A stretch of DNA of 51,036 nucleotides, taken from a virus. The notes below the pieces were generated by a model. That model worked only from the letters and a program-made list of their open reading frames with translations, did no database searches and was not told the DNA's origin. The position numbers and the translations under genes are program-made. Location: positions 1 through 51,036 of IMG/VR virus record IMGVR_UViG_3300029775_000002; one strand, written 5' to 3'. Shown in pieces: positions 3,187-51,036 of the stretch; the stretch's first letter is position 1, and every line of letters starts with the position of its first letter.

Positions 3187-3762
3187 TTAGCCCCATTGTT
3201 CAGCCATTGCTCTTGCGAATCCTTCAAACGTTTTTGATCTGATCTCTGCTCTATCTTCACTAGGGGGAAGATTATACCATTCAGGAAGGCTTTTTCCGCT
3301 TTTCGTGATGTGTCTTTTACCTTTGCTTACAATATTCGTAGGCTGGAGAAGTGGGAGATTTTTAAGCCAAAGACAAGTTGTTTTTGTATGAGGATCTCCA
3401 AACATGTACGGCTGGACTATCTGGTCAGGTTTCCTTATATGAGTAGAAATTATAGAAACTGGGTTTTCTATTGCTATTTTTGGAATGTCGGCACTCATCA
3501 ACAATCTTACAAAATCTAAAGCTTCTTTTTGTTCTTTCTGTTTTTTATAAAACCATCTAGCACCTGAAACCGCGAGATGTGTACAGTCTGGATGGAACAC
3601 AGCTAAATCCCAACCATCGTTTATAATGTCCATCACGTCTCCCTGGTAATGTGGTCCAGGTCGTGTAGATGGTTTTAAATCACAACTTATTGCATCGTGC
3701 CCTTTCTCAAAAAATGCATCTCTAACAGTTCCAGAACACTCACAACCGACTAAGACTTTCAT
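3187..3762 (-). CDS. Phage-type DNA cytosine-C5 methyltransferase-like protein
   Basis: N-terminal MKVLVGCECSGTVRDAF SAM-binding segment, HPDCT catalytic Cys region, IENPV motif VI, QPYMFG and K.TCLWL motifs. Confidence 0.7.
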   Translation of the reverse strand: MKVLVGCECSGTVRDAFFEKGHDAISCDLKPSTRPGPHYQGDVMDIINDGWDLAVFHPDCTHLAVSGARWFYKKQKEQKEALDFVRLLMSADIPKIAIENPVSIISTHIRKPDQIVQPYMFGDPHTKTTCLWLKNLPLLQPTNIVSKGKRHITKSGKSLPEWYNLPPSEDRAEIRSKTFEGFARAMAEQWG

Positions 3763-3766
3763 TTTC

Positions 3767-4351
3767 TCACTTCCTCAATATTCCCCATTCCGTCAACCTC
3801 TTCTCAATATCTCGCATTTCATAATCAGTGAAACTTAAACTCTGATAATGCCTTAAAGATGTTACCGGATCATGTCCTTGTCTTCCGTATATTTCTATCT
3901 CAGGTATCCCACATTTCAACATCCAGCTCTCAATCGTTTTCCTCGGTGTTTTCGGACCAATCTTAGGCGCTATACCAGCTTTTTCAGACCATCTCTTTAG
4001 GTTCTTATTCCAGCTATCTCTATGAGGCGGTCTAGGAGCCTCTAAGAAAGCCTTGAAAAGATATGGAAATGTAGAGGGCAGTTTGTCTATAGTCCTCTTA
4101 ACAAGTTTCTGCTTAACCTTCTTCTGAGCATCCGGAGGTAAGATAATCTGGTTTCTTTCTTTATGATACCATTCTGGATGATCGTACAACCTTTGCAGCT
4201 CAATGTATCGAAGTCCTGTAATTACATTGAGCTCGAAGGCCGGTCTATACGTTTTGCCTTGTTTTTTTTCAGGGATGAATTGAAGAAATTTATCGTATTC
4301 TTCGACGGTTAGGACTTTTGTACCGTCGCCGGTTACTAGGCCGTTATCCAT
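3767..4351 (-). CDS. Short tyrosine recombinase/integrase (catalytic domain only)
   Basis: TGLRYIE (Arg), KTPRKT (KxxR in place of HxxR), QGH followed 9 residues later by Tyr (GHDPVTSLRHY). Confidence 0.8.
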   Translation of the reverse strand: MDNGLVTGDGTKVLTVEEYDKFLQFIPEKKQGKTYRPAFELNVITGLRYIELQRLYDHPEWYHKERNQIILPPDAQKKVKQKLVKRTIDKLPSTFPYLFKAFLEAPRPPHRDSWNKNLKRWSEKAGIAPKIGPKTPRKTIESWMLKCGIPEIEIYGRQGHDPVTSLRHYQSLSFTDYEMRDIEKRLTEWGILRK

Positions 4352-4361
4352 GTATCACACC

Positions 4362-5309
4362 TCATAAAAACGAATTCTCTCCGTAGAACGCTTTGTTATC
4401 ACGGTTTGCTTCTATGATTTTGCTCCACCATTCATCTTTTATTTTTTCGTTAACATCGCCCCCCCACCATTCATACGAACACGCTTCATCCATTATTATG
4501 CAAAACATTTCATCTGGAATACCTTCAGGTTTATTTACCCAAGAATATTGTTTTAGTTTTTCTTCGATACGTTTCTCATGGCAGTCTTCCCTCTCCATTA
4601 CTCTATCCCAATATTCGTTGAATTCTTCTGTAGTAAAATAATCATCATCGGTACTTTTAGTTTGTATTATAGGAGTCTCACCGTGTTCAAACCTTGCCGA
4701 CATCGCTGCTTTTAAAGCGATGTTCACATGGTTGTTTTGTTGACCTTCGAAAGCATCGACCCACATACCATCTGGCAAATTAAGCGAAACAAGTCGTTTC
4801 ATTTCAGTTCCGGCAGATTCCGCGCCCCACCCCGCGTCTACCCAATTTATATCAAAACTATGTGTAAACTTTAATCCAGAATTAAAAAACGCAACGCTTG
4901 ATATATGCACTCCTTTACTATGTTGGATACATGGGAACTCTATAATAATATCCTTATCACTTGGAATCCAAATATTAGATAAAATTAAAATTCCTCTTTC
5001 AGTTTGCCAACTATCTGCAATATCAGGCAATTGCCCTCCATAATCTACGGCATTTGCCAACATTGCCCAATAATCCACCGTTACATTTTCTAAATCACCC
5101 TTTACTTCTACCCATGTTTTTGTTTCTGGAAGGTAAAAATCTGGAAGGTAATACCACGTTTTACAGCTACCACGGTCTTTGATTTCATACCCTTCTTTTT
5201 CATACTCATACTTAATCCCTAGAGTATCAAAGAATACAGCCCATCTAGCTTCCAACCTGCTCCGAAATCTATACCCGTTATATACCGTTTCAATTGGCTT
5301 AATTTCCAT
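4362..5309 (-). CDS. PD-(D/E)XK nuclease-domain protein
   Basis: FRSRLEARWAVFFD..YEYE..YLPDFYLP...VEVKG, a common phage nuclease signature. Confidence 0.75.
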   Translation of the reverse strand: MEIKPIETVYNGYRFRSRLEARWAVFFDTLGIKYEYEKEGYEIKDRGSCKTWYYLPDFYLPETKTWVEVKGDLENVTVDYWAMLANAVDYGGQLPDIADSWQTERGILILSNIWIPSDKDIIIEFPCIQHSKGVHISSVAFFNSGLKFTHSFDINWVDAGWGAESAGTEMKRLVSLNLPDGMWVDAFEGQQNNHVNIALKAAMSARFEHGETPIIQTKSTDDDYFTTEEFNEYWDRVMEREDCHEKRIEEKLKQYSWVNKPEGIPDEMFCIIMDEACSYEWWGGDVNEKIKDEWWSKIIEANRDNKAFYGENSFL

Positions 5310-5450
5310 AAGTAAACCTCTTCATTTAGTAAACAACGACATAATATAAAAAGGTAGTTATTTTTAATTATAAAAATATTGATATTAATCTATAAGAAAA
5401 TTTACTTATATACTCAAAAAAGTTAATAATTGAAATAACGACATTTTATC

Positions 5451-5840
5451 TTAAAAGGTAGTTGTTAAAGGGGTAGGCATCCCATCTTTCTCATACTCAT
5501 AAACCGGAATCCCCATTTCTTCAGCTATAAACCTCTCAAGCTTCGCACCTTCGGACAGTTCCCAATCAGGGATCATAAGAAGTGCATCACCGGCTTTAAC
5601 TGACATCCGGCGAATAAATGATATATCGCCATCCATCCAGATTTCCCATTTTTCATTACAATGCTGAAACCCGGATGTATTTTTATGAGGACATAACGCA
5701 GCCCATCCGAAAACCCAAGCTTCAAGGGCTATCTTAGAGGCTTTTAATATATTTTCATTAATTCCGTGTATAGGATCTGAATGAGAAAACGGACCAGATA
5801 TATATAAAATCGGGCGAGTACCAAATTCTTTATTATCCAT
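5451..5840 (-). CDS. Nucleoside 2-deoxyribosyltransferase-like protein (DUF4406/DUF1937-type)
   Basis: YISGPF...CPH...D(ALL)...W..SEGAKLE...A..MGIPV pattern. Confidence 0.65.
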   Translation of the reverse strand: MDNKEFGTRPILYISGPFSHSDPIHGINENILKASKIALEAWVFGWAALCPHKNTSGFQHCNEKWEIWMDGDISFIRRMSVKAGDALLMIPDWELSEGAKLERFIAEEMGIPVYEYEKDGMPTPLTTTF

Positions 5841-5841
5841 T

Positions 5842-6282
5842 TTAAAACACCTTCCTTAACTTTCTCTCAATCCAATCAGGCACAATAGCCCGATACCCAG
5901 AATATACCTTATCAGTAATTATATGAGTCCATAACATAAGTACAGCTCCTATTATACTCTCAATCGAAACATGATACCCGTAAACAGTCAACGGAACCCA
6001 TAAAAAACTTATCAAAATGAAAGGCCCCCATGCATAATCATGAAGTATCTCCCGGTGTCCAGCTTTTGAAAAAGGTTCCCAAATTCTCCCGAAAGGGCCC
6101 CATAGCTTTCTAACAATACTTTCCTGAGAGTCCAGGTCGCTTGTTATAAGGAATGTATAGGGCATCATTCCAATCCAGAAGTTTTGTAATCCTTGAAAAT
6201 TTAAATAGCCTGTCAAGAAGCCCCAGATTGAAGAAGAGAGAGCGACGAAGAGACAGGCGTAAACGTGGGTACTGTATTTCAT
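5842..6282 (-). CDS. Putative metal-binding membrane protein (DUF2227-like)
   Basis: TH, SDLD, W.PF...GHR...H and H...D motifs set among hydrophobic segments. Confidence 0.6.
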   Translation of the reverse strand: MKYSTHVYACLFVALSSSIWGFLTGYLNFQGLQNFWIGMMPYTFLITSDLDSQESIVRKLWGPFGRIWEPFSKAGHREILHDYAWGPFILISFLWVPLTVYGYHVSIESIIGAVLMLWTHIITDKVYSGYRAIVPDWIERKLRKVF

Positions 6283-6719
6283 TAAGCTATAACCTCATCA
6301 ATCTTATTCTGAATATGAGCCCCCTTTATCTTTGGATACCTTCCAACTAAAAGCCCCAATACGTTCTCAGGATCGGCATTTACGGCGACATAATGATAAT
6401 TCCATTTGTTATCTGTATACCTAACGTATACGAGGTTATCAGCTTTGGAATCCTGAATTATATCCTCGATCTCGCATTCGCATCTGAAATGTTTAATATC
6501 TGATCTTGAGCTTAACAGAGTTCTTACAGCCGACTGCTCATCGAATGCTCTAATCATTATATAATGATCCTGCCATTCTTGAGTATTATAATTGATAACG
6601 TAATGGCTTTCTTCTGGTTCTTGTACGGTTTCATGCGCTGCATTAGTGCCAAGCACTTTGTTTATTATGTCAATAAGTTTCATCTCACGGCAACCCCCTG
6701 AAAGCTCCCAGTACTCCAC
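6282..6719 (-). CDS. Hypothetical protein
   Basis: 145-aa ORF coupled to its neighbours; real start probably MKLIDII. Confidence 0.55.
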   Translation of the reverse strand: MEYWELSGGCREMKLIDIINKVLGTNAAHETVQEPEESHYVINYNTQEWQDHYIMIRAFDEQSAVRTLLSSRSDIKHFRCECEIEDIIQDSKADNLVYVRYTDNKWNYHYVAVNADPENVLGLLVGRYPKIKGAHIQNKIDEVIA

Positions 6720-6783
6720 ATGATAGCAGCCTGTCTTTCTTCCTGTTCTCTACACTTCAAGTACTCTTCAAGTTCTTCATAGG

Positions 6784-7086
6784 TCATATTCTCCCAACCC
6801 CTACTGACCAACAGCCCCACCATATAAGAGCAAACGCTGAATAACAGAACATGTCGAATTTGTTCATTACTCTGTCACTCCACAGATCCCATTTCCATGT
6901 AGGATGTTCGGTTTGTGATAATTCAGTAATATAAGAGAGGTAGTTATCGGATGCATCTATGCCATCAATAAAAGAACGGAGCTCTTTTTCAGGAGGCAGG
7001 TCTTTGTTTTCAGTCTGTGCTGTTACAGCTGAAACTGCAACAATCATTATTAAAAATGCTATACATATCTGTTTTAACGCTTTCAT
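6784..7086 (-). CDS. Secreted or membrane-anchored hypothetical protein
   Basis: N-terminal signal peptide and C-terminal hydrophobic helix. Confidence 0.55.
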   Translation of the reverse strand: MKALKQICIAFLIMIVAVSAVTAQTENKDLPPEKELRSFIDGIDASDNYLSYITELSQTEHPTWKWDLWSDRVMNKFDMFCYSAFALIWWGCWSVGVGRI

Positions 7087-7115
7087 GGATTAATTTACAC
7101 CTCAAATTGTTAATG

Positions 7116-7316
7116 TTAACCATCTGGGTATTTTTGCTCCCTGATACACAGCTCCCCAGTATCTTTTTTTAGTTTGTATATCAGGTCCTTCCCTTCGAAA
7201 AATCCTCTTATTTTTGAATAATCTTCTGTGCCAAAATAGAGCATACCTAGCTGACGTTTTTGATTATATACACGCATACTTGTAGTTCCGGTAATTTCAG
7301 TTTCAGTTTCTTTCAT
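7116..7316 (-). CDS. Small AbrB/SpoVT-like regulator (tentative)
   Basis: 66 aa with a beta-rich pattern; divergent from the VirB-like operon. Confidence 0.4.
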   Translation of the reverse strand: MKETETEITGTTSMRVYNQKRQLGMLYFGTEDYSKIRGFFEGKDLIYKLKKDTGELCIREQKYPDG

Positions 7317-7358
7317 GTGATTACCTATTGTCTAGGATATAGCATCTATTTGTTATAT

Positions 7359-7406
7359 TAAATAACCTTCATTGTAGATAAATTTATCTACAATGAAGGT
7401 TATTTA
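7359..7406. repeat. Perfect 48-bp spacerless palindrome
   Basis: TAAATAACCTTCATTGTAGATAAA|TTTATCTACAATGAAGGTTATTTA, checked base by base. Confidence 0.97.
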
Positions 7407-7454
7407 GTTACTACACATAAAAAAAATTAAATGTAATTTATGAGAGGTTTAATT

Positions 7455-7853
7455 ATGAAAATTGCAGCAAAAATTCTACTGGTGCTACTCATGGCATCTA
7501 TTATTTTACCTGGATTTGCATCAGCAGCTGAGCCAGGTGCGATTCCGGAAATAGGCAATATCACTGGACCATCTACTACCACAGATGTTACTGGCGGGCT
7601 TGGGATATTTTCAAAACTTGGACAATTCTTAATGGATTATTCAATCCACATAGCGGTATTCGTAATGGTGCTAGCTATAGTGATATTGTCAGCAAGGGGT
7701 TCGTGGGCTCGCAGTAATCAGCGCTCAGAAGAAGCGTCTGAGAGTAGGTCAAATACGAAAGGGCTAATCATAGACGGTGTAATGACAATGGCAGCCTTGA
7801 TGTTCGTATTTTTTATTTTGGCACCGTTTGTCAAGAGTTTCATTCCGGCGTGA
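7455..7853 (+). CDS. VirB2/TrbC-like pilin or membrane subunit
   Basis: Signal peptide (…ILPGFASA|AE) plus two hydrophobic helices; first gene of the operon ending in VirB4. Confidence 0.55.
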   Translation: MKIAAKILLVLLMASIILPGFASAAEPGAIPEIGNITGPSTTTDVTGGLGIFSKLGQFLMDYSIHIAVFVMVLAIVILSARGSWARSNQRSEEASESRSNTKGLIIDGVMTMAALMFVFFILAPFVKSFIPA

Positions 7854-7865
7854 TGAGGTAAGAAC

Positions 7866-8069
7866 ATGAACGAATTTCAAAGAGAAGACATGATAAAAAG
7901 CGTTTCAGGCACCGTAGAAAGAAACTACTGTGCGATAAAACGTGAAGAATTGTTTGAAAAGTATAAAAACACCGATCAAGAAACGATGAAAAGTGTTATA
8001 GAGACTATGAAAAGACGAGGAATCTTGAGATACGACCAAAAAAACGACAAATACCGACTGGTGCTATAA
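7866..8069 (+). CDS. Small winged-helix protein
   Basis: VIETMKRRGILRYDQKNDKYRLV wing pattern. Confidence 0.5.
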   Translation: MNEFQREDMIKSVSGTVERNYCAIKREELFEKYKNTDQETMKSVIETMKRRGILRYDQKNDKYRLVL

Positions 8070-9500
8070 ATGAATAAATGGTTTGTCCTGCTTGGATTAT
8101 TTTTTATTGGTTCAATTGATGTTGTTAGCGCAGGACAGACAATTTATTTAGATCCTACTGATGAAGATGGGATCAATAAGGCACTAGAAGCCGCTAAAAA
8201 TGAGCCTGGAACTACTACAATAATACTAAATCCAGGCACATATGAAATTAAAGGCTCTCTAATTATCTATTCTAATACTGTTTTGAAAGGCGACCACGCT
8301 AAAATCTTAGTTTCCTCAAAATCAAAACAGTGGTTTATCCCTCCAAATGGGATAATCACAACTAAAGGACCCGTCGAAAACGTCACAATTGAAAATCTTA
8401 TAATAGACGGCAACTGTCACATGCTCCCGGCGAAATATGCAGATACACCGGGACATAAACACGACTGCGAGAAGCTCATTATCATAAAGGGGTACAGTAA
8501 CAAAAATTCAAAAAATATAGTTATCCGTAACTGTATATTTGCAAATGCCTTTTCTGATGCTGTTTATGTCGCACATTCAAAAGACGTAATCGTAGAAAAT
8601 AATCAAATTTCAAACTGCCAGCACTCTTCTATTTATTTTTCATGTGTTGTTAGTGGTCTTATTAAGAAAAACGATATCGCGGGGATAACAAGCGATAACG
8701 TTCGAGTTGAAAATTCTAAAAATGTAAAGGTACTGTATAATAATCTGTATGGATATTTCGGGAAAAAATCAAATGGAGCTTACCAGGGTGGGCACAATTT
8801 AGTACAAGTAGGGGACCAGGGCTTTTCTCATGGGTATGGTTCACCTAAGTCGATACATACTGAAAATATCGAAATCGCTTATAATACATTTTCAGGAAAA
8901 CATCTGAACACTATTTGGATAGACGCAGCCGGGAAAACTCCCACTACAAACCTCTGGATACATGATAATGAGTATGTCGATATGCCGGAAATTGAAAGGG
9001 ACGGATACAGCGCAGAAAACCCGCCTTCAATCGAAGAAACCGAGGAGATATTCACAACCTTGAAAGATCTCCTTAAAAGAGATTACACTTTCCAATATTT
9101 AGATACTGAGCAGGATTTAGAGGCATCAGCAGAAGCCGTTTATCACAATTACTCAACTGCTCCGTATAGCTTACTCACGGTTGAAGGAGAGGACGATATA
9201 GAGGTTATCAAGATTTCCTACGATGGGAACTCAGCCAGGCACTTTATAGAACGTGATATGTGGGTGGGTGATTTCCAGAGAGTGGGGGATGGTTGGTATA
9301 TTCCAGGCGAATTCGATGCGAATGAGTTAAAAATAACAGTTTACTCAAAAAACGGATATAAAACGTTATCAGAAGATGAAATAGAAATCAGGAACGCGAA
9401 AATCGGGTTAGCTGCAATTAGTGTTGATCTGTTCAATTATATTGCAACGCTGGCGATTTCTGGAATATCAATAACAAGAAGCATCAGGAGAATTTTATAA
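8070..9500 (+). CDS. Secreted, C-terminally membrane-anchored right-handed beta-helix protein (disaggregatase/pectate-lyase-like)
   Basis: Signal peptide, INKALEAA..TIILNPGTY, repeated N..I.NN beta-helix rungs, terminal hydrophobic helix followed by RRIL. Confidence 0.75.
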   Translation: MNKWFVLLGLFFIGSIDVVSAGQTIYLDPTDEDGINKALEAAKNEPGTTTIILNPGTYEIKGSLIIYSNTVLKGDHAKILVSSKSKQWFIPPNGIITTKGPVENVTIENLIIDGNCHMLPAKYADTPGHKHDCEKLIIIKGYSNKNSKNIVIRNCIFANAFSDAVYVAHSKDVIVENNQISNCQHSSIYFSCVVSGLIKKNDIAGITSDNVRVENSKNVKVLYNNLYGYFGKKSNGAYQGGHNLVQVGDQGFSHGYGSPKSIHTENIEIAYNTFSGKHLNTIWIDAAGKTPTTNLWIHDNEYVDMPEIERDGYSAENPPSIEETEEIFTTLKDLLKRDYTFQYLDTEQDLEASAEAVYHNYSTAPYSLLTVEGEDDIEVIKISYDGNSARHFIERDMWVGDFQRVGDGWYIPGEFDANELKITVYSKNGYKTLSEDEIEIRNAKIGLAAISVDLFNYIATLAISGISITRSIRRIL

Positions 9501-10615
9501 TGAGGCTGAAATGCGTATTAGTTCTATTGATACTGCTTATATCCATGACCGGGGCGGCTCTTGCTGCAGAGGAAAAACTGAAGGTCAGGAACTCGGACGG
9601 TGAAGAAGTAACAAGGGACACGACCCCTAAAAAATCAATGACTTTAGAGGATGCCGTTTCCCTTAATGCTGACATGGAGGACGCTGGAGTTCTGAGTAAT
9701 GACAATGAAGACGAAGAAACCGAGGAAGACGAGGCTCCTGAGAAATCATATAATAAAGAAATAGTTGAAGATGAAGATTATATAAGAAACGAAGTTGCGG
9801 CCGGAAACGAGCAATTTTTAACCGGGTTATTCACAGGGATTTACACAGAGTTCCAAAATTCTAGCGTAAAGGATGAAAACGGCAATGTGGCAGGTATGAT
9901 TTATACAGTCGTCACTTTTGTCCCGAACCCTTACGAGAATAATACAATAGTGGACTTATACGGCGGGTATGTCAATCTCTGTATATTCCTTACAGTTATG
10001 TTCGTTTTAGGGGAATCCGTTAATCGTAGTGCTGCCAGGATGAAAATAACTTCAGGTTCTAAGTATAGTCTCCCTCCTAGAAGGCTTATAGGCGGGCTTG
10101 CTATGTGCATGTTTGCGGTAATGGGAAACGTGTTTTACATGCTCATATTAGAGATAATCGAAGCTCTAAACGGCTTCATTACAATGCCCGTAGTTCCTGC
10201 AATGACTCCAGACCCAGAGCATTTCTTTACGTTTTTGATGATGGGACTCTGCGACCTGCTTGTAATGATATTTTTTATAGTTCGGTACTTCCTGATTTAC
10301 ACTTTCGCCGTGATTTGCGGGGTTGTTTTTGTCCTGTTAGTTTTCAAAACATCAAGGGACTTCTCACAAAATGTTATCGAGAAAATGATAAGGATTCTAG
10401 CCCTTCAGCCAGCTTCTTTGTTTGTCACATCAGTATGCATTTTAGCAATAGATTCGTTACCAATGCCCCTTCAGCGTTTCGGTTATGTAGGGGTTACGGT
10501 TGTAATATTCTTAACTTGTTACTATTTCATGTTCGGAAATTTCACGCTGCTTAAAACGGGTATCAGTACCGCAGTCTCAAAAGGATTAGTTAAAACCGGA
10601 GTTCGATACAAATGA
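9500..10615 (+). CDS. VirB6/TrbL-like polytopic membrane protein
   Basis: Signal peptide, acidic stretch, then about 6 TM helices; position in the VirB4 operon. Confidence 0.55.
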   Translation: MRLKCVLVLLILLISMTGAALAAEEKLKVRNSDGEEVTRDTTPKKSMTLEDAVSLNADMEDAGVLSNDNEDEETEEDEAPEKSYNKEIVEDEDYIRNEVAAGNEQFLTGLFTGIYTEFQNSSVKDENGNVAGMIYTVVTFVPNPYENNTIVDLYGGYVNLCIFLTVMFVLGESVNRSAARMKITSGSKYSLPPRRLIGGLAMCMFAVMGNVFYMLILEIIEALNGFITMPVVPAMTPDPEHFFTFLMMGLCDLLVMIFFIVRYFLIYTFAVICGVVFVLLVFKTSRDFSQNVIEKMIRILALQPASLFVTSVCILAIDSLPMPLQRFGYVGVTVVIFLTCYYFMFGNFTLLKTGISTAVSKGLVKTGVRYK

Positions 10616-11607
10616 CCAACGAAACACCATATTCACAAGCAAGACCACCAAAAACAATCACAAGAATAAAATCAGACAGGTTCTTAGACCTTACCAACCT
10701 CCATACATGGATACTGTTCGCAGCAACAGCCGCATGTATGTATCTCTTCAGGGAGATGTCAAACAGTATAATAGTTGTACTAACAGCAACCAGAAATATG
10801 ACACCAGAAGAACTGATAACAGATGCTTACATGAACATTCTTATGTATGCTTCAATGCTCGTTTTAGTCGTGTTTTTCTGGTTGAAATATTTTAGAAACG
10901 ATGATCTCGTGGAATACCAGAAAGACCGGACAGTGTTTTTCATCCAGGGTCTACGCGGGAAGCATGTAATCAATACAATGGCTGAATCAATGGAGAACCT
11001 GTTAAAACTCGTTTCTATCGTGGGAATCCATGACAGCACAGACGGGATAAAGGAAACTAAAGCCCCAAAAGGTGTTATAATTGAATTTGGTCCTCATATC
11101 TCATTTATCCAGAGATTGAAAATCTTCTTCAGGCTCGAAAAGAAGAAGCTGAATGAATATGGGGTACTGATTGAAACATTCCCGCCCAGGCTCTCAGATG
11201 AATTCCGAGAGTTTCACGAGATGGTACTCCAAAAGGTTGTAAACGGGCTTCCGGTTAACACGTTATTTGAAAATATATCCTGCTCTGTGATGGAGCCCAA
11301 AAAGCAGGTTTTAGAGTATCTGCTCTCACTAATGAACACCTCAAAGGGGGATGCAAGCGACAAACATCTTGCAGACATGTATCTCAAGATTTCTACTGAT
11401 AACGAACTTGTAATAAAATGGCGGTATTATTCCTTCATTTCATTGGGAGAGCGTAAAAATATAGCTGCTGCAAGGGTCCAGTATGGGGCAATAATCCCAG
11501 GGCTCATATCAAGTATGAAAGGTGCTTCTCTGTGCCCTGTAGTGCTTAGAGATCAACAGTCGGTAATTGAAGCTTATAAAATTATGTTAGGGGAGGTAGA
11601 CGCATGA
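10612..11607 (+). CDS. VirB3/PrgI-like protein (two TM helices plus soluble domain)
   Basis: Two N-terminal hydrophobic helices; overlaps the VirB4 start (ATGA). Confidence 0.45.
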   Translation: MTNETPYSQARPPKTITRIKSDRFLDLTNLHTWILFAATAACMYLFREMSNSIIVVLTATRNMTPEELITDAYMNILMYASMLVLVVFFWLKYFRNDDLVEYQKDRTVFFIQGLRGKHVINTMAESMENLLKLVSIVGIHDSTDGIKETKAPKGVIIEFGPHISFIQRLKIFFRLEKKKLNEYGVLIETFPPRLSDEFREFHEMVLQKVVNGLPVNTLFENISCSVMEPKKQVLEYLLSLMNTSKGDASDKHLADMYLKISTDNELVIKWRYYSFISLGERKNIAAARVQYGAIIPGLISSMKGASLCPVVLRDQQSVIEAYKIMLGEVDA

Positions 11608-14165
11608 TAGTTCAAAAAGTCAAGAATCTTAAAACGAATGTAAAGAAGAGATGGAACGATGCTGGACACTACGCAGATAATCAAGCATGGTCTAGGTCAT
11701 ATGCAAGAAAGATTCTTCCAAGCAGGATTGAGGTATTTGATACTAATCTCGTATTTAATCAGAGAATGGTAGTCCGAACTATTGTATGTGGTTTACCAAC
11801 TGATACAGGTTCAGAAGGATACCCACGAGACTTCAGCAGCAAAACTATTGAGCAGATACAGAACCTAGCGTTTGATGGGGTTAGGGTCTTAATTTCTACG
11901 GGTCTCATTCAGTTGCCAGGGGTTCACACAAAAGAGACGTTAGAGCAGGCACATTTTGATGCAGGAGTTAGGCGAAGCCAAAACAATCACGAAGGGACTG
12001 AGAAAGATGAGCTCGAACTTACTATGAAAAGTCAGGATATCATACAAAACTATTCTGAAATATATTACAAGTCTCAAAAGGCTTTTCATGCTTCTTTTGT
12101 TGTCGTCCTGCGTGGGCCTGCTGATCTAGTGTTCGAGGCTGAAAGTAAATTAATAAACATTATCAGAGGGGAAAATATAGAGGTTACTATTCCTAGCAGG
12201 CTTCAGCTTGAGATGCTACAGACGGCTTTACCTGGACCAGACACTCACCCTAGATCATGGGTTGAAGTTCGTTCAGACGGGGCGGCGGTCTTATCATCTG
12301 CAACAAACCTGAACAGCCGGACAGATGATACAGGCATGTATTTCGGGAAGGACATGTTAACCAATAATGAAATTATGTTCGATCTGGATAGACTTGCAGC
12401 CAAAACACTGGCTATGTGTGGAGCTACAGGGTCCGGTAAAACATATGCTTATCTGCTGCTTCTCATGCGGTTGAAGACTCTCAGGGATGCCCGGATAATA
12501 TACACGACTCCAAAGGCCGATGAAGGCACTAATTATAGGTCTGTAGCGGCTGCATTTGGGGACAATGGCTGTATAGCTGACATTGGTATTAATGGATCTG
12601 AATATTTCAATCCTCTTGATATTCTGATTGACCTTGAGAGCATGGGACTGAACAAGGAAGAACTGAAGGGAGCCAGGAAACATATATTTGAAAATTTATA
12701 CGACCTGAAGAAAGGGACCTTAATAAACGCTCATAGAATCTGGTTAGGCTCAGAATTCACGTCAAATATGGCTAGTTATCTCGATGAGTCCCTTGATTAT
12801 GTTTACGAGCAAGCAGGAATCTATAGGGATGAACCGGACAGCTTTTCAAATCCAATGCCTGTATATCCTACACTCCGTTTTAAATGGGAGCTGGATAAGG
12901 AAAACAAGAACTTAGGGACTAAACAGAAGACCGCAGAGGCACTTTATAATAAGACTTATCAGTTCTCTTCAACTGGATTATTTAATAGATACTGCAACCA
13001 GACAAAAGGGCTGGACCTTAACAAAGACTTCATTATAATAGATATGGCAAACGTCCCAGACGAGATTAAAACGTTTATGTCAGTCATTGTAAACGGGGCT
13101 ATAGCTTCCAGGTTCAGCACTCACAACGAAAGAGAGACCTATCTAGCGATTGATGAAGGCGGGGTCTACCTTCGGGATAAGCTATTAAGAGAACAGATGC
13201 TACAGAGGCTCACGCAGGGTAGGAGTCATAAGTTTTACCAGTGGATTGCAACACATCAGCCGTCAGACTTCTCTAAAAATGGAGTCGGTGAGGACTTCAG
13301 GACGAATACCTACATAAATATCCTGATGGGAAACAACATTAAAAAATCCCTCAATGATGTAAAAGACTATTTTGAGTTAACAGAAAACGAATGCTCTATA
13401 TTGTCAAACTGTACTGTAGGACAGGGTCTATTACTATTCGGAGATTCCGAAGATGAAAGAGTTCCCATCTTCTTTGAGTCTACAAAATGGGAGCATGAAA
13501 CGATCAAAGGAATAGGATATGAAGACAAAAAACCAGTTGCTGATAGTGGTTTAACGTTTAAGAGGGAATTCAAGCATTTAATAGCAGATCATAAAATCAT
13601 CTTTTCAGACTGGTTTGATGGCGACTCTTCCGTATTATTACAACAGGGCTACGAAAAACACCAAGTTTCCAGAGTTAACAAACCAGGAACGGTTGGTGCT
13701 TTTTTACCAAAGGGTTCTGTCAGGAATGGACGGATAATATTACCGCATTTGGGAGACATGAAACTCATTCATTTCTCTGATGTGATCCAGTTAGACCCGT
13801 TAATGCAGTCTGAAAACTTCGAGGAAATAACGATAAACCACAATCAGGATGTGGATATTAAGGGCCGGAAAAATGGAAAATGGCTTGGCTTGGAAGTCGA
13901 AATAAAAGGCTCTCACACTACAGAGGAATTGATAGCAAAGAAGGCAGCTGCACTCGGAAAAGGAATGGAAGTTCGTTTCATTTGCAGTTCCGCGGATTAT
14001 CCCTTCATTTCAGGGACCGTAGGTGAGGATTATACGCTTAAAAGAGGGTCGGACGTTGCTGATTTCTTAAAGAATTTCGCGGCTGAAGAAGAAAACGGCG
14101 AAGAAGAAACAGATATTCAGGTTCCTGCTGAATCTGGACTGATTACTGATGAATTGGAGGCTTAA
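11604..14165 (+). CDS. virB4: VirB4-like secretion/conjugation ATPase with a C-terminal PD-(D/E)XK-like domain
   Basis: Walker A GATGSGKT, FNPLD, IIIDM, Walker B LAIDEGG, ATHQPSDF and GQGLL motifs; 853 aa. Confidence 0.8.
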   Translation: MIVQKVKNLKTNVKKRWNDAGHYADNQAWSRSYARKILPSRIEVFDTNLVFNQRMVVRTIVCGLPTDTGSEGYPRDFSSKTIEQIQNLAFDGVRVLISTGLIQLPGVHTKETLEQAHFDAGVRRSQNNHEGTEKDELELTMKSQDIIQNYSEIYYKSQKAFHASFVVVLRGPADLVFEAESKLINIIRGENIEVTIPSRLQLEMLQTALPGPDTHPRSWVEVRSDGAAVLSSATNLNSRTDDTGMYFGKDMLTNNEIMFDLDRLAAKTLAMCGATGSGKTYAYLLLLMRLKTLRDARIIYTTPKADEGTNYRSVAAAFGDNGCIADIGINGSEYFNPLDILIDLESMGLNKEELKGARKHIFENLYDLKKGTLINAHRIWLGSEFTSNMASYLDESLDYVYEQAGIYRDEPDSFSNPMPVYPTLRFKWELDKENKNLGTKQKTAEALYNKTYQFSSTGLFNRYCNQTKGLDLNKDFIIIDMANVPDEIKTFMSVIVNGAIASRFSTHNERETYLAIDEGGVYLRDKLLREQMLQRLTQGRSHKFYQWIATHQPSDFSKNGVGEDFRTNTYINILMGNNIKKSLNDVKDYFELTENECSILSNCTVGQGLLLFGDSEDERVPIFFESTKWEHETIKGIGYEDKKPVADSGLTFKREFKHLIADHKIIFSDWFDGDSSVLLQQGYEKHQVSRVNKPGTVGAFLPKGSVRNGRIILPHLGDMKLIHFSDVIQLDPLMQSENFEEITINHNQDVDIKGRKNGKWLGLEVEIKGSHTTEELIAKKAAALGKGMEVRFICSSADYPFISGTVGEDYTLKRGSDVADFLKNFAAEEENGEEETDIQVPAESGLITDELEA

Positions 14166-41299: not shown

Positions 41300-41330
41300 C
41301 CGTGAGAAGAGGGCGACTTAAACAACTCTT
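41255..41330 (-). mobile_element. Orphan TnpB-type right end (omega-RNA scaffold-like)
   Basis: Minus strand AAGCCCCACAGCTTTAGCTCGGTGGTAGTTCAC, nearly identical to 46151-46182. Confidence 0.7.
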
Positions 41331-41544
41331 AGGCGGGTTTTTTGTTGTTCCCCTCTTTTCTCTTTTTTTCCTCGTTCATCCGTACATCGTAGCAGCCGAA
41401 AAAATAAGCAAGCGCGGTAGACGTTAGTTCTGATGCGCTTGAGAATTTCCCATCGTTTACGAGAGTGTCTATTCGATCTTTCAGATACGGGCTAATCGTT
41501 GCGCTCAGTTTCTCTTTTTTCGGTTCAATTTTTGAGTCCTCCAT
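41329..41544 (-). CDS. RHH repressor-like protein
   Basis: KLSATISPYLKDRIDTLVNDGKFSSASELTSTAL. Confidence 0.75.
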   Translation of the reverse strand: MEDSKIEPKKEKLSATISPYLKDRIDTLVNDGKFSSASELTSTALAYFFGCYDVRMNEEKKRKEGNNKKPA

Positions 41545-41578
41545 ACATATTAATTTAACTTTTTGTATATAAATGATT

Positions 41579-41596
41579 ATGTGCTAATTAGCACAT
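41579..41596. promoter_or_regulatory. Perfect 18-bp operator palindrome ATGTGCTAATTAGCACAT
   Basis: Between divergent RHH genes; related sites at 41632, 39311 and 39821. Confidence 0.75.
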
Positions 41597-41665
41597 TTAG
41601 GAATACTTATATATGATAAACGTCTACTATTATGTGCTAATAATCACAGTTTCAAAAGGTGAATT

Positions 41666-49314: not shown

Positions 49315-50553
49315 ATGCCTGAGTTGAACGCCGCGGCTCCTGTTAAGAAAAGCTCGTTTCGACTAGCAGCAGCAGCCGGCGTATTAGGAAAAAAAGAAAA
49401 CCCGACGAATTTCGGGGATTACACGAATTTTGATACTTCTAACAGATTTTTCAGATATCAGCAGCTCGTTAAGTCAACTCCCTATGCTTCTATCGGAATG
49501 AAAAAACTCAAGACTTCGCTAACGAAAGGGCTCGATTTCGATGGCAAGAGCAGGCGACAAGTTGACGAATTCCGCAAGTGGATGAAAAAAACTAATCTAG
49601 TCGGACAAGTTCAAAATATCGCAGGCTCACTTTTCCGAGATGGGACTTTTTGCGGGGTATTAAACGGCAATAATCCTGACACTCTCAAGCTTCAGCCTCT
49701 TTTAATGGCACATACTACGCTTCTTCCCGAAGGCATAGAGCATGGAAAAGCCTCTAAGGTACTTTTACAGCCTCCTATTAAGGAGTTCGTTGTTAATGAG
49801 GGAAGCACAGGGGACGTTCAGGAAGTCACGTATAAGGCTCAGGATGTAGTTTATGGGGCTTTGGATGAATGGGACTCAATCCAATTAGATATTAGAGAAC
49901 GTGAAACATGCGGGCTTTATGGTGAGAGCCTAATTGATCCTATTGAACTTTCTATAAGATATCTCCATGTCATAAATCAAGGATACGTGGAGTTCGTTAA
50001 AAAATACGGTATGGGGAGATACAGTTACTCTTTCCCTATTTTAGAAAAATTACTCGAATCCAATATTATAGATTTCAATGTTTTTCAAACAGAAATTAAT
50101 GACTGGATGGAAGATAACAAGAACCTTTCACAAAATGAAGATCTCGTCGGCATCGTAAAAGCGGAAGCCATCGATGCTAAAGGCTCTTTAGATATAATGG
50201 AATTCAAAAAAGCCTTAGAGACTGACATCCAGCTTGGTTTCTTACAAAGTGACTTATCAATGGGCGACTCGAAAGGGTCAACTTATGCAGCCGGTTACGT
50301 TTCTGAAAATAGCAGGATGGTCGCTCTCGAAAATCTACAGCTCAATCTTTCTAATATTGTTAACGATTTCATTAACAGACGGCTCGTTTTGCAAAATAAA
50401 TCTGAAGATTCAGTGGAAATAATCTTCGATGAATTAAGCCTCCCTCAGATGTCGGCAGCCGAGATAACTGAATGGTATGCGACGGGGATTATTACGAAGG
50501 AGCAGGCTTTAGAGTGGGGCGGGTTTCCAGTTTTAGAATCAGGCGGTGAGTAA
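49315..50553 (+). CDS. Portal protein
   Basis: 412 aa after terL; helical pattern with LYGES.IDPI clip-region motif. Confidence 0.8.
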   Translation: MPELNAAAPVKKSSFRLAAAAGVLGKKENPTNFGDYTNFDTSNRFFRYQQLVKSTPYASIGMKKLKTSLTKGLDFDGKSRRQVDEFRKWMKKTNLVGQVQNIAGSLFRDGTFCGVLNGNNPDTLKLQPLLMAHTTLLPEGIEHGKASKVLLQPPIKEFVVNEGSTGDVQEVTYKAQDVVYGALDEWDSIQLDIRERETCGLYGESLIDPIELSIRYLHVINQGYVEFVKKYGMGRYSYSFPILEKLLESNIIDFNVFQTEINDWMEDNKNLSQNEDLVGIVKAEAIDAKGSLDIMEFKKALETDIQLGFLQSDLSMGDSKGSTYAAGYVSENSRMVALENLQLNLSNIVNDFINRRLVLQNKSEDSVEIIFDELSLPQMSAAEITEWYATGIITKEQALEWGGFPVLESGGE

Positions 50554-50555
50554 AA

Positions 50556-50933
50556 TTGAATTCAATAGTTCCAGCAGCAAATTACACTTTCGACGCGAGT
50601 GAAAAAACAATCACTCTATCAAGTCCATACAATTTGATGACGGAAGAACAAATCGTCACAATTCGGAACATCACGAAAAACCAGCTTATTTATGATTCTG
50701 CCAATACCAACAGGGGGCAGATATCAATAACAAACGGTACAACATCAGTAAACATCAGGCATGGTTTCCACAAGACCCCATCATCGATCCAAATTACTCC
50801 AACAAGTTCATTGGGCACTGCCTCATCAATATGGGTCTCGTCCAAAGATACAGGTACAGGAAATTTATTTACTGTTTCTACCAATGTTGATCCTGGGCAG
50901 GATGTTACATTTGATTGGCAGGCTACATTGTGA
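50556..50933 (+). CDS. Small fibre- or decoration-like structural protein
   Basis: YTFDAS.KTITL N-terminus; C-terminal GQISI…V.I.HG…TP…F.WQA fibre-tip-like domain. Confidence 0.45.
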   Translation: MNSIVPAANYTFDASEKTITLSSPYNLMTEEQIVTIRNITKNQLIYDSANTNRGQISITNGTTSVNIRHGFHKTPSSIQITPTSSLGTASSIWVSSKDTGTGNLFTVSTNVDPGQDVTFDWQATL

Positions 50934-51036
50934 GGTTCTAAATGCAAAAAATAGACGTATTTCGCACAGCAGATAAAAAATCTTTCCAGCTTGCAGATGG
51001 TGGTATATTTGGGTTTCAAACAGATACAAACTACAC

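Follow-up and report, generated by a model that had tools for sequence, protein, structure and literature searches.

Small DNA-binding proteins of the AbrB/MazE/VapB type are autoregulated repressors that act on palindromic operators, and among them are MazE of Escherichia coli, the VapB proteins of Rickettsia and Caulobacter, seen in complex with DNA in structures 3zvk and 5l6l, and AbrB of Bacillus subtilis. Archaeal members of the AbrB type include C68 of pSSVx (3o27), C56 of pSSVi (7xi6) and Sso7c4 (2l66). Archaeal promoters with a BRE-TATA-BRE arrangement, described in Pyrococcus furiosus, fire in both directions from start sites 49-50 bp apart (PMC6640164), and in Methanolobus the BRE/TATA element lies 19-22 nt from the start site, with a median 5'UTR of 55 nt (PMC5378194). 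Compact operator-promoter regions between divergent transcription units are found in OR of lambda (cI/cro) and immI of P22 (Arc/Mnt), and long perfect palindromes without a spacer are known as the telRL sites of the temperate tailed viruses N15, PY54 and phiKO2 (TelN/TelK). Here we compare with these systems a 48-bp palindrome carried by a head-tail virus of archaea.

The window, that is the whole stretch of DNA that was analysed, is an entire virus record of IMG/VR, 51,036 bp long, for which CheckV gives a completeness of 76% and which has no end repeats. It carries the genes of a head-tail virus (T4-type large terminase, portal, Mu-F protein, HK97-like capsid protein and tape measure), and its tail proteins have disaggregatase-related and DUF2341 domains. 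The closest cellular homologue of the gene adjacent to the palindrome is found on the chromosome of Methanosarcina siciliae (protein P0016). Because of this homologue and of the disaggregatase and DUF2341 domains, the host is predicted to be Methanosarcina or a close relative. Proteiniphilum and Leptospirales were also considered as hosts and rejected, the sole matches being contigs of 5-7 kb in those metagenome-assembled genomes that are most likely binning noise. In an independently assembled relative, G001 (IMGVR_UViG_3300038313_000238), the portal gene continues into the Mu-F gene, and therefore the two ends of the window adjoin on a circular or permuted map. Measured over the joined ends of the window (50553-51036 plus 1-139), the portal and Mu-F genes are about 620 bp apart, versus 1616 bp in G001 (C1:5462-7078); about 1 kb may be absent at the ends of the window, which would account only partly for the completeness of 76%. 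Another difference of about 930 bp, present in G001 (C1:11887-12821) and absent from the window, falls inside or beside the 100-aa ORF at 6784-7086. The match to G001 breaks at window position 6867, with only 73 of the 100 residues of this ORF aligning, so that either G001 has gained sequence here or the window has lost it.

The palindrome lies in a gap of 139 bp between the ORF at 7116-7316(-) and the pilin-like gene at 7456-7853(+), which are placed head-to-head. An earlier note on this DNA had described an exact, loop-free 24+24 inverted repeat at 7359-7406, located between a divergent small regulator and a pilin-like gene of an archaeal virus, and both parts of that description were borne out. 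Comparison of the arms 7359-7382 (TAAATAACCTTCATTGTAGATAAA) and 7383-7406 showed 24 nt that are 100% complementary with a spacer of 0 nt, the centre being AAATTT. A scan of the whole window found 11 nt as the next-longest perfect arm. The expected count of 24+24 sites is 3.6e-10 per 51-kb window from base composition, or 1e-7 if the AT-rich local composition is used, and the longest arm seen in 200 first-order Markov simulations was 13. In single-stranded form the dyad gives a hairpin with a stem of 22 bp (-20 kcal/mol, z = -8.1). Over this region G001 is 99% identical, with just two differences in 381 bp, of which one is a T>C change in the left arm of its dyad, and an identical stretch of 90 bp occurs in three metagenome contigs (L036, L049 and L052). 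Given these copies, with their unique flanks, and the rarity figures, we conclude that the palindrome is real and non-random, and that the assembly artefact which the earlier note had kept in mind is ruled out.

One of these contigs, L052 (ENA UOOM01000226), comes from a fermentation metagenome, has a length of 70,147 bp and a coverage of about 417x, and carries the identical dyad with a regulator 100% identical, a pilin gene 99% identical and a beta-helix protein whose identity is down to 88%, as judged from 14.7 kb of its sequence; this contig may represent a more complete or a mosaic genome of the same virus. Another metagenome contig (L039:1-37) stops 15 nt to one side of the conserved core of the palindrome, within the outer arm, and this end is most simply a break of the de Bruijn graph at the palindrome, not evidence of a physical DNA end. 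Searching positions 6900-7900 against Rfam returned only generic look-alikes of miRNA-precursor hairpins, far under the gathering scores, and a known RNA family was not retained as a candidate. An IS200/IS605 end was likewise rejected, the Y1 transposase being 11 kb off and no IS end lying near the dyad.

The dyad heads a rightward operon (7456-14165(+)) of genes for a VirB2-like pilin, a 67-aa protein, a beta-helix protein, two membrane proteins and a VirB4-like ATPase. The ATPase matches NF045971 (6e-25), and the pilin-like protein has a signal peptide and two membrane helices. In the leftward direction lies a gene set (3187-7086(-)) for 100-aa and 145-aa proteins, DUF2227 and DUF4406 proteins, a nuclease-like protein of 315 aa, a 194-aa tyrosine recombinase and a DNA methyltransferase. 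The first leftward gene is the 66-aa ORF beside the dyad, whose product we call P0001. Because the same-strand spacing is tight, P0001 is probably co-transcribed with the set that follows it.

P0001, encoded at 7116-7316(-), is a candidate regulator that was recognised from its fold model and structural matches. It has no match in Pfam (even at E <= 1), PHROG or NCBIfam, no sequence match in the PDB with the profile A6, and no sequence profile ties it to the Pfam MazE_antitoxin/AbrB clan. Thirteen relatives of 41-656 aa, mostly of 63-71 aa, came out of a profile search against 1.8 billion representatives, and the family members from two homologue searches are designated P0006-P0026. An AF2 run with 11 close sequences gave a pLDDT of 57 and was superseded by a run on the alignment A6, which includes the 13 relatives from the profile search. 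The resulting model has a pLDDT of 90 and a beta-beta-alpha-beta-beta order, with strands at residues 13-18, 23-27, 45-50 and 55-60 and a helix at 30-40. Ten of the 12 VIA-align matches and most of the top Foldseek matches are VapB, SpoVT, AbrB, MazE, Sso7c4 or C56. The best structural match is VapB 5k8j (Z 4.5), and the matches also include VapB 3zvk in its promoter-DNA-bound form, AbrB-N, and C56 and C68 of the Sulfolobus virus-plasmids. Each score is weak (Foldseek E >= 0.5), as expected for one half of an interleaved dimer, and the lists are consistent. The model thus suggests that P0001 folds as a half-barrel, like the DNA-binding domains of AbrB, MazE and VapB.

Each of the four distant P0001 relatives that were looked up is arranged head-to-head with a neighbouring gene, and the three whose DNA was available (P0018, P0019 and P0024) have upstream dyads of their own, which are different and shorter. 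Distant genes of the family adjoin a gene for Orc1/Cdc6 (L054:3578-4831 and L055) or for a 371-aa integrase (L058:1061-2176). With such neighbours, this small regulator family seems to be a general fitting of mobile elements of the Methanosarcinales type.

Relatives of the locus were gathered through the ATPase, through homologues of P0001 and through a scan for the central 22-mer in IMG/VR and in a metagenome collection. After orienting and deduplication, 12 distinct sites were aligned (alignment A4). The central 22 bp (7372-7393), formed by TTGTAGATAAA and TTTATCTACAA on either side of the centre, are identical in all 12. A P0001 homologue is visible beside this core in 11 of them, and the contig of the twelfth (L042) starts 77 nt left of the core, leaving the operon side alone visible. 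Across the core-bearing sites the regulators are 83-100% identical, the beta-helix protein of the operon is down to 39% and the remaining intergenic DNA has diverged. The outer arms are variable. Some lineages have long symmetric arms of another sequence, namely perfect arms of 26+26 in L034 and L051, 23+23 in L041, and 28+28 with one mismatch in L042, and L027 and L030 have little symmetry past the core (11+11). Near-perfect dyads of 46-52 bp are found in several lineages, and most relatives are symmetric over just 22-34 bp. The earlier note had called for conservation in related viruses, and such conservation holds for the 22-bp core but not for the full 48-bp symmetry.

When the dyad was scored as 30 pairs, 83% of the cells could pair, compared with about 43% when the partner column was slid. 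About five independent changes affect both arms and preserve the symmetry, all in the outer arms. Covariation was 0.133 versus 0.102 for column shuffles, a value reached by 9 of 500 shuffles (9-11 of 500), and the excess is a modest one. The metagenome collection gave 18 matches to the 22-mer, of which six without a regulator (L040, L044, L045, L047, L048 and L053) were set aside; two of these lie inside long ORFs and four belong to an unrelated small family, and all six are treated as chance or unrelated. In the latter family (L040, L045, L047 and L053), made up of low-GC metagenome contigs, the 22-mer is extended to a 12+12 palindrome, with no long ORF spanning it and no P0001 homologue. Within the window, the half-site TTGTAGATAAA with up to one mismatch has four further copies versus about two expected, which is not significant and gives no indication of a wider regulon; these extra copies look like ordinary promoter sequences of the TATA type.

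The same operon is preceded by other small ORFs in L004, L006, L015 and L016, and the core is absent in all four. In L006 the ORF encodes a different AbrB-like protein, P0005, which is accompanied by its own 22+22 dyad of unrelated sequence and with an asymmetric centre. The ORF of L015 encodes a P0005-like protein, and the palindrome there is 7+7; the ORF of L016 is zinc-ribbon-like, and a large dyad is absent. L004 (genome G002, IMGVR_UViG_3300009716_000011) has, at the place equivalent to that of the dyad, 5.6 tandem repeats of 28 bp (4780-5030). Each of these repeats contains the small palindrome TCGATAATCGA, and the array is flanked by two related dyads, TTTTTAGTG...CACTAAAAA and TTTAGTGTT...AACACTAAA, in a layout that looks like an iteron, parC or operator array. 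From just downstream of the dyad onward, the DNA of L038, L041 and L051 is about 71% identical to that of L006, and these three have a P0001-type regulator and the dyad where L006 has P0005 and its different 22+22 dyad. Finally, P0016 of M. siciliae, a 60% homologue of P0001, is encoded in another integrated element, whose genes include a primase-DUF5906 gene and one for an integrase of 396 aa. The P0016 gene is head-to-head with that of a 308-aa secreted protein, the related core TTGTAGATATATTTATATACA lies between the two, and no pilin operon is found beside them. The core follows the regulator gene rather than the transfer operon, and this pattern of linkage indicates a regulator-operator or promoter cassette, not a site serving the transfer machinery or the ends of a replicon.

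Read in either direction, the core consists of the BRE-like GATAAA followed by the TATA-like TTTATCTA. The methanogen TATA consensus is TTTATATA, from which TTTATCTA differs by one mismatch, and the A-rich hexamer GATAAA stands at the BRE position. One putative box (7383-7390(+), with GATAAA at 7377-7382) would face the pilin operon, its 3' end lying 66 nt from the ATG at 7456, and its mirror image (7375-7382(-), with GATAAA at 7388-7383) would face the regulator, its 3' end lying 59 nt from the ATG at 7316. The only other TATA-like box in the 139-bp gap is TTAATATA at the left edge of the dyad (7354-7361(-)), 38 nt from the ATG at 7316, which could be an alternative promoter of the regulator; TATA-like boxes are found at the same offset in L027 and L030. 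In the homologous element of M. siciliae both boxes are perfect copies of TTTATATA that face outward, with 24 nt between the end of either box and its start codon, an arrangement that would make two leaderless promoters. Elsewhere in the window, the 11-mer of the core recurs with one mismatch as TTTATATACAA, which ends 22 nt before the start of the gene at 41329-41544(-), and the distance from other TATA-like boxes to the starts that they face is 22-70 nt, a range into which the 59 and 66 nt of the core boxes fall. The spacings known from the BRE-TATA-BRE promoters and from Methanolobus would put the start sites a few nt outside each edge of the palindrome, and the hairpin would then be part of neither transcript.

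The gene at 41329-41544(-), for a 71-aa protein, is likely to have a leaderless promoter of its own, with a perfect TTTATATA box at 41566-41573(-) that ends 22 nt upstream. Two near-palindromes of 17 nt (TGTGCTAATTAGCACAT and ATGTGCTAATAATCACA) lie at 41580-41648 between divergent small genes, and this may be another operator region.

The reading that we favour, with a probability of about 0.72, is that the dyad at 7359-7406 is the shared promoter-operator of two divergent gene sets, under the control of the adjacent AbrB-like protein. Of the alternatives in the earlier note this is essentially the third, a large operator, and it is favoured by the position of the dyad between head-to-head genes, the conservation of the core, its linkage to the regulator, the predicted fold of P0001, the geometry of the TATA-like boxes and the dyads that distant family members have upstream. 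Two archaeal core promoters would stand back to back, fused into one symmetric element and overlaid by an operator for P0001. TBP and TFB of the host would load RNA polymerase rightward into the pilin/VirB4-like operon, from a predicted start site at about 7407-7413, and leftward into the regulator and the accessory set, from about 7352-7358. P0001 would most likely bind to the dyad in dimeric or tetrameric form, like AbrB, MazE and VapB, and its binding would shut off or tune both promoters, giving an autoregulated accessory block. Further contacts would probably be made in the symmetric outer arms, at positions 12-24 from the centre, which separate the TATA-like boxes from the predicted start sites. 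Alternatively, the outer TAAATAA/TTATTTA boxes could be the real TATA boxes and the core nothing more than an operator. The length of the dyad is unusual, but as a control element of an archaeal virus it belongs to a kind already known.

A perfect palindrome of 48-52 bp is far longer than a typical operator, which counts against a plain operator, and changes in both arms are a signature of base pairing or of copying from arm to arm, not of plain recognition by a protein. A protein reading both half-sites would explain the conservation but not the symmetric change, which would be explained by template switching between the arms or by selection of a cruciform. Template switching in quasi-palindromes can yield changes in both arms without any selection. 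Perhaps the dyad is purely a symmetric bidirectional promoter with no dedicated repressor, its long arms being kept or regenerated by such switching, and the 66-aa protein does something else. The core indeed has the size and sequence of BRE+TATA+BRE, its homologue in M. siciliae has perfect TATA boxes, the same 11-mer serves another gene, and bidirectional promoters sharing a TATA element are documented (PMC6640164). However, generic promoters of one host would not need to be identical at 22 of 22 positions in viruses that have diverged, a change of the small regulator is always accompanied by a change of the dyad although the host lineage and the downstream operon remain unchanged, and the AF2 model gives the neighbouring protein a DNA-binding fold, and we regard a promoter without a repressor as unlikely. 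The changes in both arms, with their modest excess over shuffles, could also indicate a cruciform or hairpin function. If the arms are selected for intrastrand pairing, the dyad would extrude as a cruciform, or form a hairpin in single-stranded DNA, and would be a cis site that starts DNA processing besides its promoter role, and the processing may be carried out by a relaxase-less transfer machine bearing a VirB4-nuclease or by a nuclease of the Holliday-junction type. The length and perfection of the arms and the stable single-stranded hairpin leave a small probability for such pairing, and a still smaller one for its version as a hairpin telomere; if pairing proved to be selected, this would be the first defined cis transfer or processing site of a conjugation-like system borne by an archaeal virus. 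Only a little more credible is a replication origin or centromere of a plasmid-like block, extruded as a cruciform or bound by an initiator or partition adaptor. The best hint for it comes from the 5.6 tandem repeats and flanking dyads of G002, with their iteron- or parC-like layout, and it would also fit the stable hairpin, the few changes in both arms, and the minimum of cumulative GC skew at about 6-8 kb, although this switch of skew is confounded because it coincides with the switch of gene orientation. Against it, no initiator or ParA/ParB gene adjoins the dyad, the window has no iterons or AT-rich unwinding tract beside it, and the replication genes differ between core-bearing elements, with a primase-DUF5906 gene in M. 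siciliae and none recognised in the window.

The two other proposals of the earlier note, a cruciform transfer origin and a telomere-resolution site, fared less well than its operator. An oriT-like or processing site used by the VirB4-like machinery, with the nuclease-like C-terminal domain of the ATPase perhaps doing the cutting, is suggested by the position of the dyad at the head of a T4SS-like operon for which no other candidate site is known, and long inverted repeats are common at oriT. These repeats are, however, normally imperfect with the nic site outside them, four relatives have the same operon without the dyad, and M. siciliae has a related core with no such operon beside it. Moreover, the relaxase families PF03432, PF08751 and PF01076 (Relaxase, TrwC and Mob_Pre) are absent from the window virus (G000), G002 and G004; archaeal systems may lack canonical relaxases, and this absence lowers the case for an oriT-like function without removing it. 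Since the dyad follows the regulator gene and not the transfer operon, we consider a transfer origin very improbable. The leading proposal of the earlier note, a telRL site of a linear-plasmid prophage resolved by the protein encoded at 3767-4351, is the least credible of all. According to it, the dyad would be a telRL-like site, or another target of the 194-aa tyrosine recombinase, and cleavage at the AAATTT centre would lead to hairpin ends or recombination. The dyad is indeed a long palindrome, perfect, spacerless and with a symmetric centre, and the recombinase gene is 3 kb off, adjoined by that of a nuclease resembling Holliday-junction resolvases. But a six-frame search of the window, G001, G002 and G004 found no match to the ResT/TelK domain PF16684 at E <= 1, and G004 is 100% complete; nor did any window ORF of at least 300 aa give a recombinase match in Pfam. 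The recombinase itself is an XerA-like catalytic stub, with only a weak match to the C-terminal part of XerA and no match in the PDB, and it does not co-occur with the dyad: an orthologue is present in G002, which has no dyad, and none was found on the L027 and L028 contigs, which have it. (A 194-aa ORF of L006 was also considered as an orthologue and proved unrelated by tblastn; the ORF of L004, that is G002, is the only one.) In the same way, the dyad can be read as 21+6+21, but it is not inherited together with a recombinase as a Xer/dif, lox or att core site would be. In at least 12 assemblies the site connects a unique left flank to a unique right flank with no fold-back, which as a result from contigs is compatible with a minority resolved form. 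The map of G001 is circular or permuted with a T4-type terminase, most relatives are symmetric over 22-34 bp only, and the centre of the L006 dyad is asymmetric.

With a bidirectional promoter-operator as the preferred reading, the unsupported claim of a hairpin-telomere prophage in an archaeal virus is replaced by a concrete control element, in which a single symmetric switch of 48 bp, served by a candidate repressor of 66 aa, would head both a conjugation-like operon and an accessory set. The dyad and the regulator provide handles for asking whether DNA is transferred from cell to cell by this operon. The cassette, compact and strongly conserved, could serve as a bidirectional repressible promoter part in Methanosarcina genetics. 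The series of variants, from arms of 46-52 bp to the core only, is also a natural experiment on the maintenance of long palindromes in archaeal DNA.

Compared with the systems described above, the dyad resembles the telRL sites of N15, PY54 and phiKO2 in being a long, perfect and spacerless palindrome in the circular map of a temperate tailed virus. It differs from them in that no protelomerase was found, no recombinase of the right kind is adjacent, 22 bp alone are conserved, and no evidence of hairpin ends was found. Like the BRE-TATA-BRE promoters of P. furiosus (PMC6640164), it has a symmetric, A/T-rich TATA-like element flanked left and right by BRE-like sequence, and outward start sites would be expected about 50 bp apart, which is approximately the span of the palindrome. 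Those promoters give mostly non-functional antisense RNA among head-to-tail genes, whereas here two real gene sets diverge, and the dyad is exactly symmetric over 48 bp and conserved as a cassette with the regulator.

As in the AbrB, MazE and VapB systems, the gene for a protein of about 50-70 aa with a predicted beta-beta-alpha-beta-beta order is carried by a mobile element or virus and adjoins a dyad within its promoter region, and the dyad changes with the protein. Unlike them, P0001 has no sequence-profile membership and no toxin partner, its gene is divergent from a large T4SS-like operon, and its dyad is perfect over 48 bp where operators are usually of 10-25 bp. Lambda and P22 use HTH or RHH repressors for a lysis-lysogeny switch, whereas the dyad would work with the archaeal basal machinery and an AbrB-like protein, as a candidate control of an accessory conjugation-like block. 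Like OR and immI, it would be a compact operator-promoter region between divergent transcription units, and like theirs, the repressor-operator pair appears to be swapped as a module between related viruses, in a mosaicism resembling heteroimmunity.
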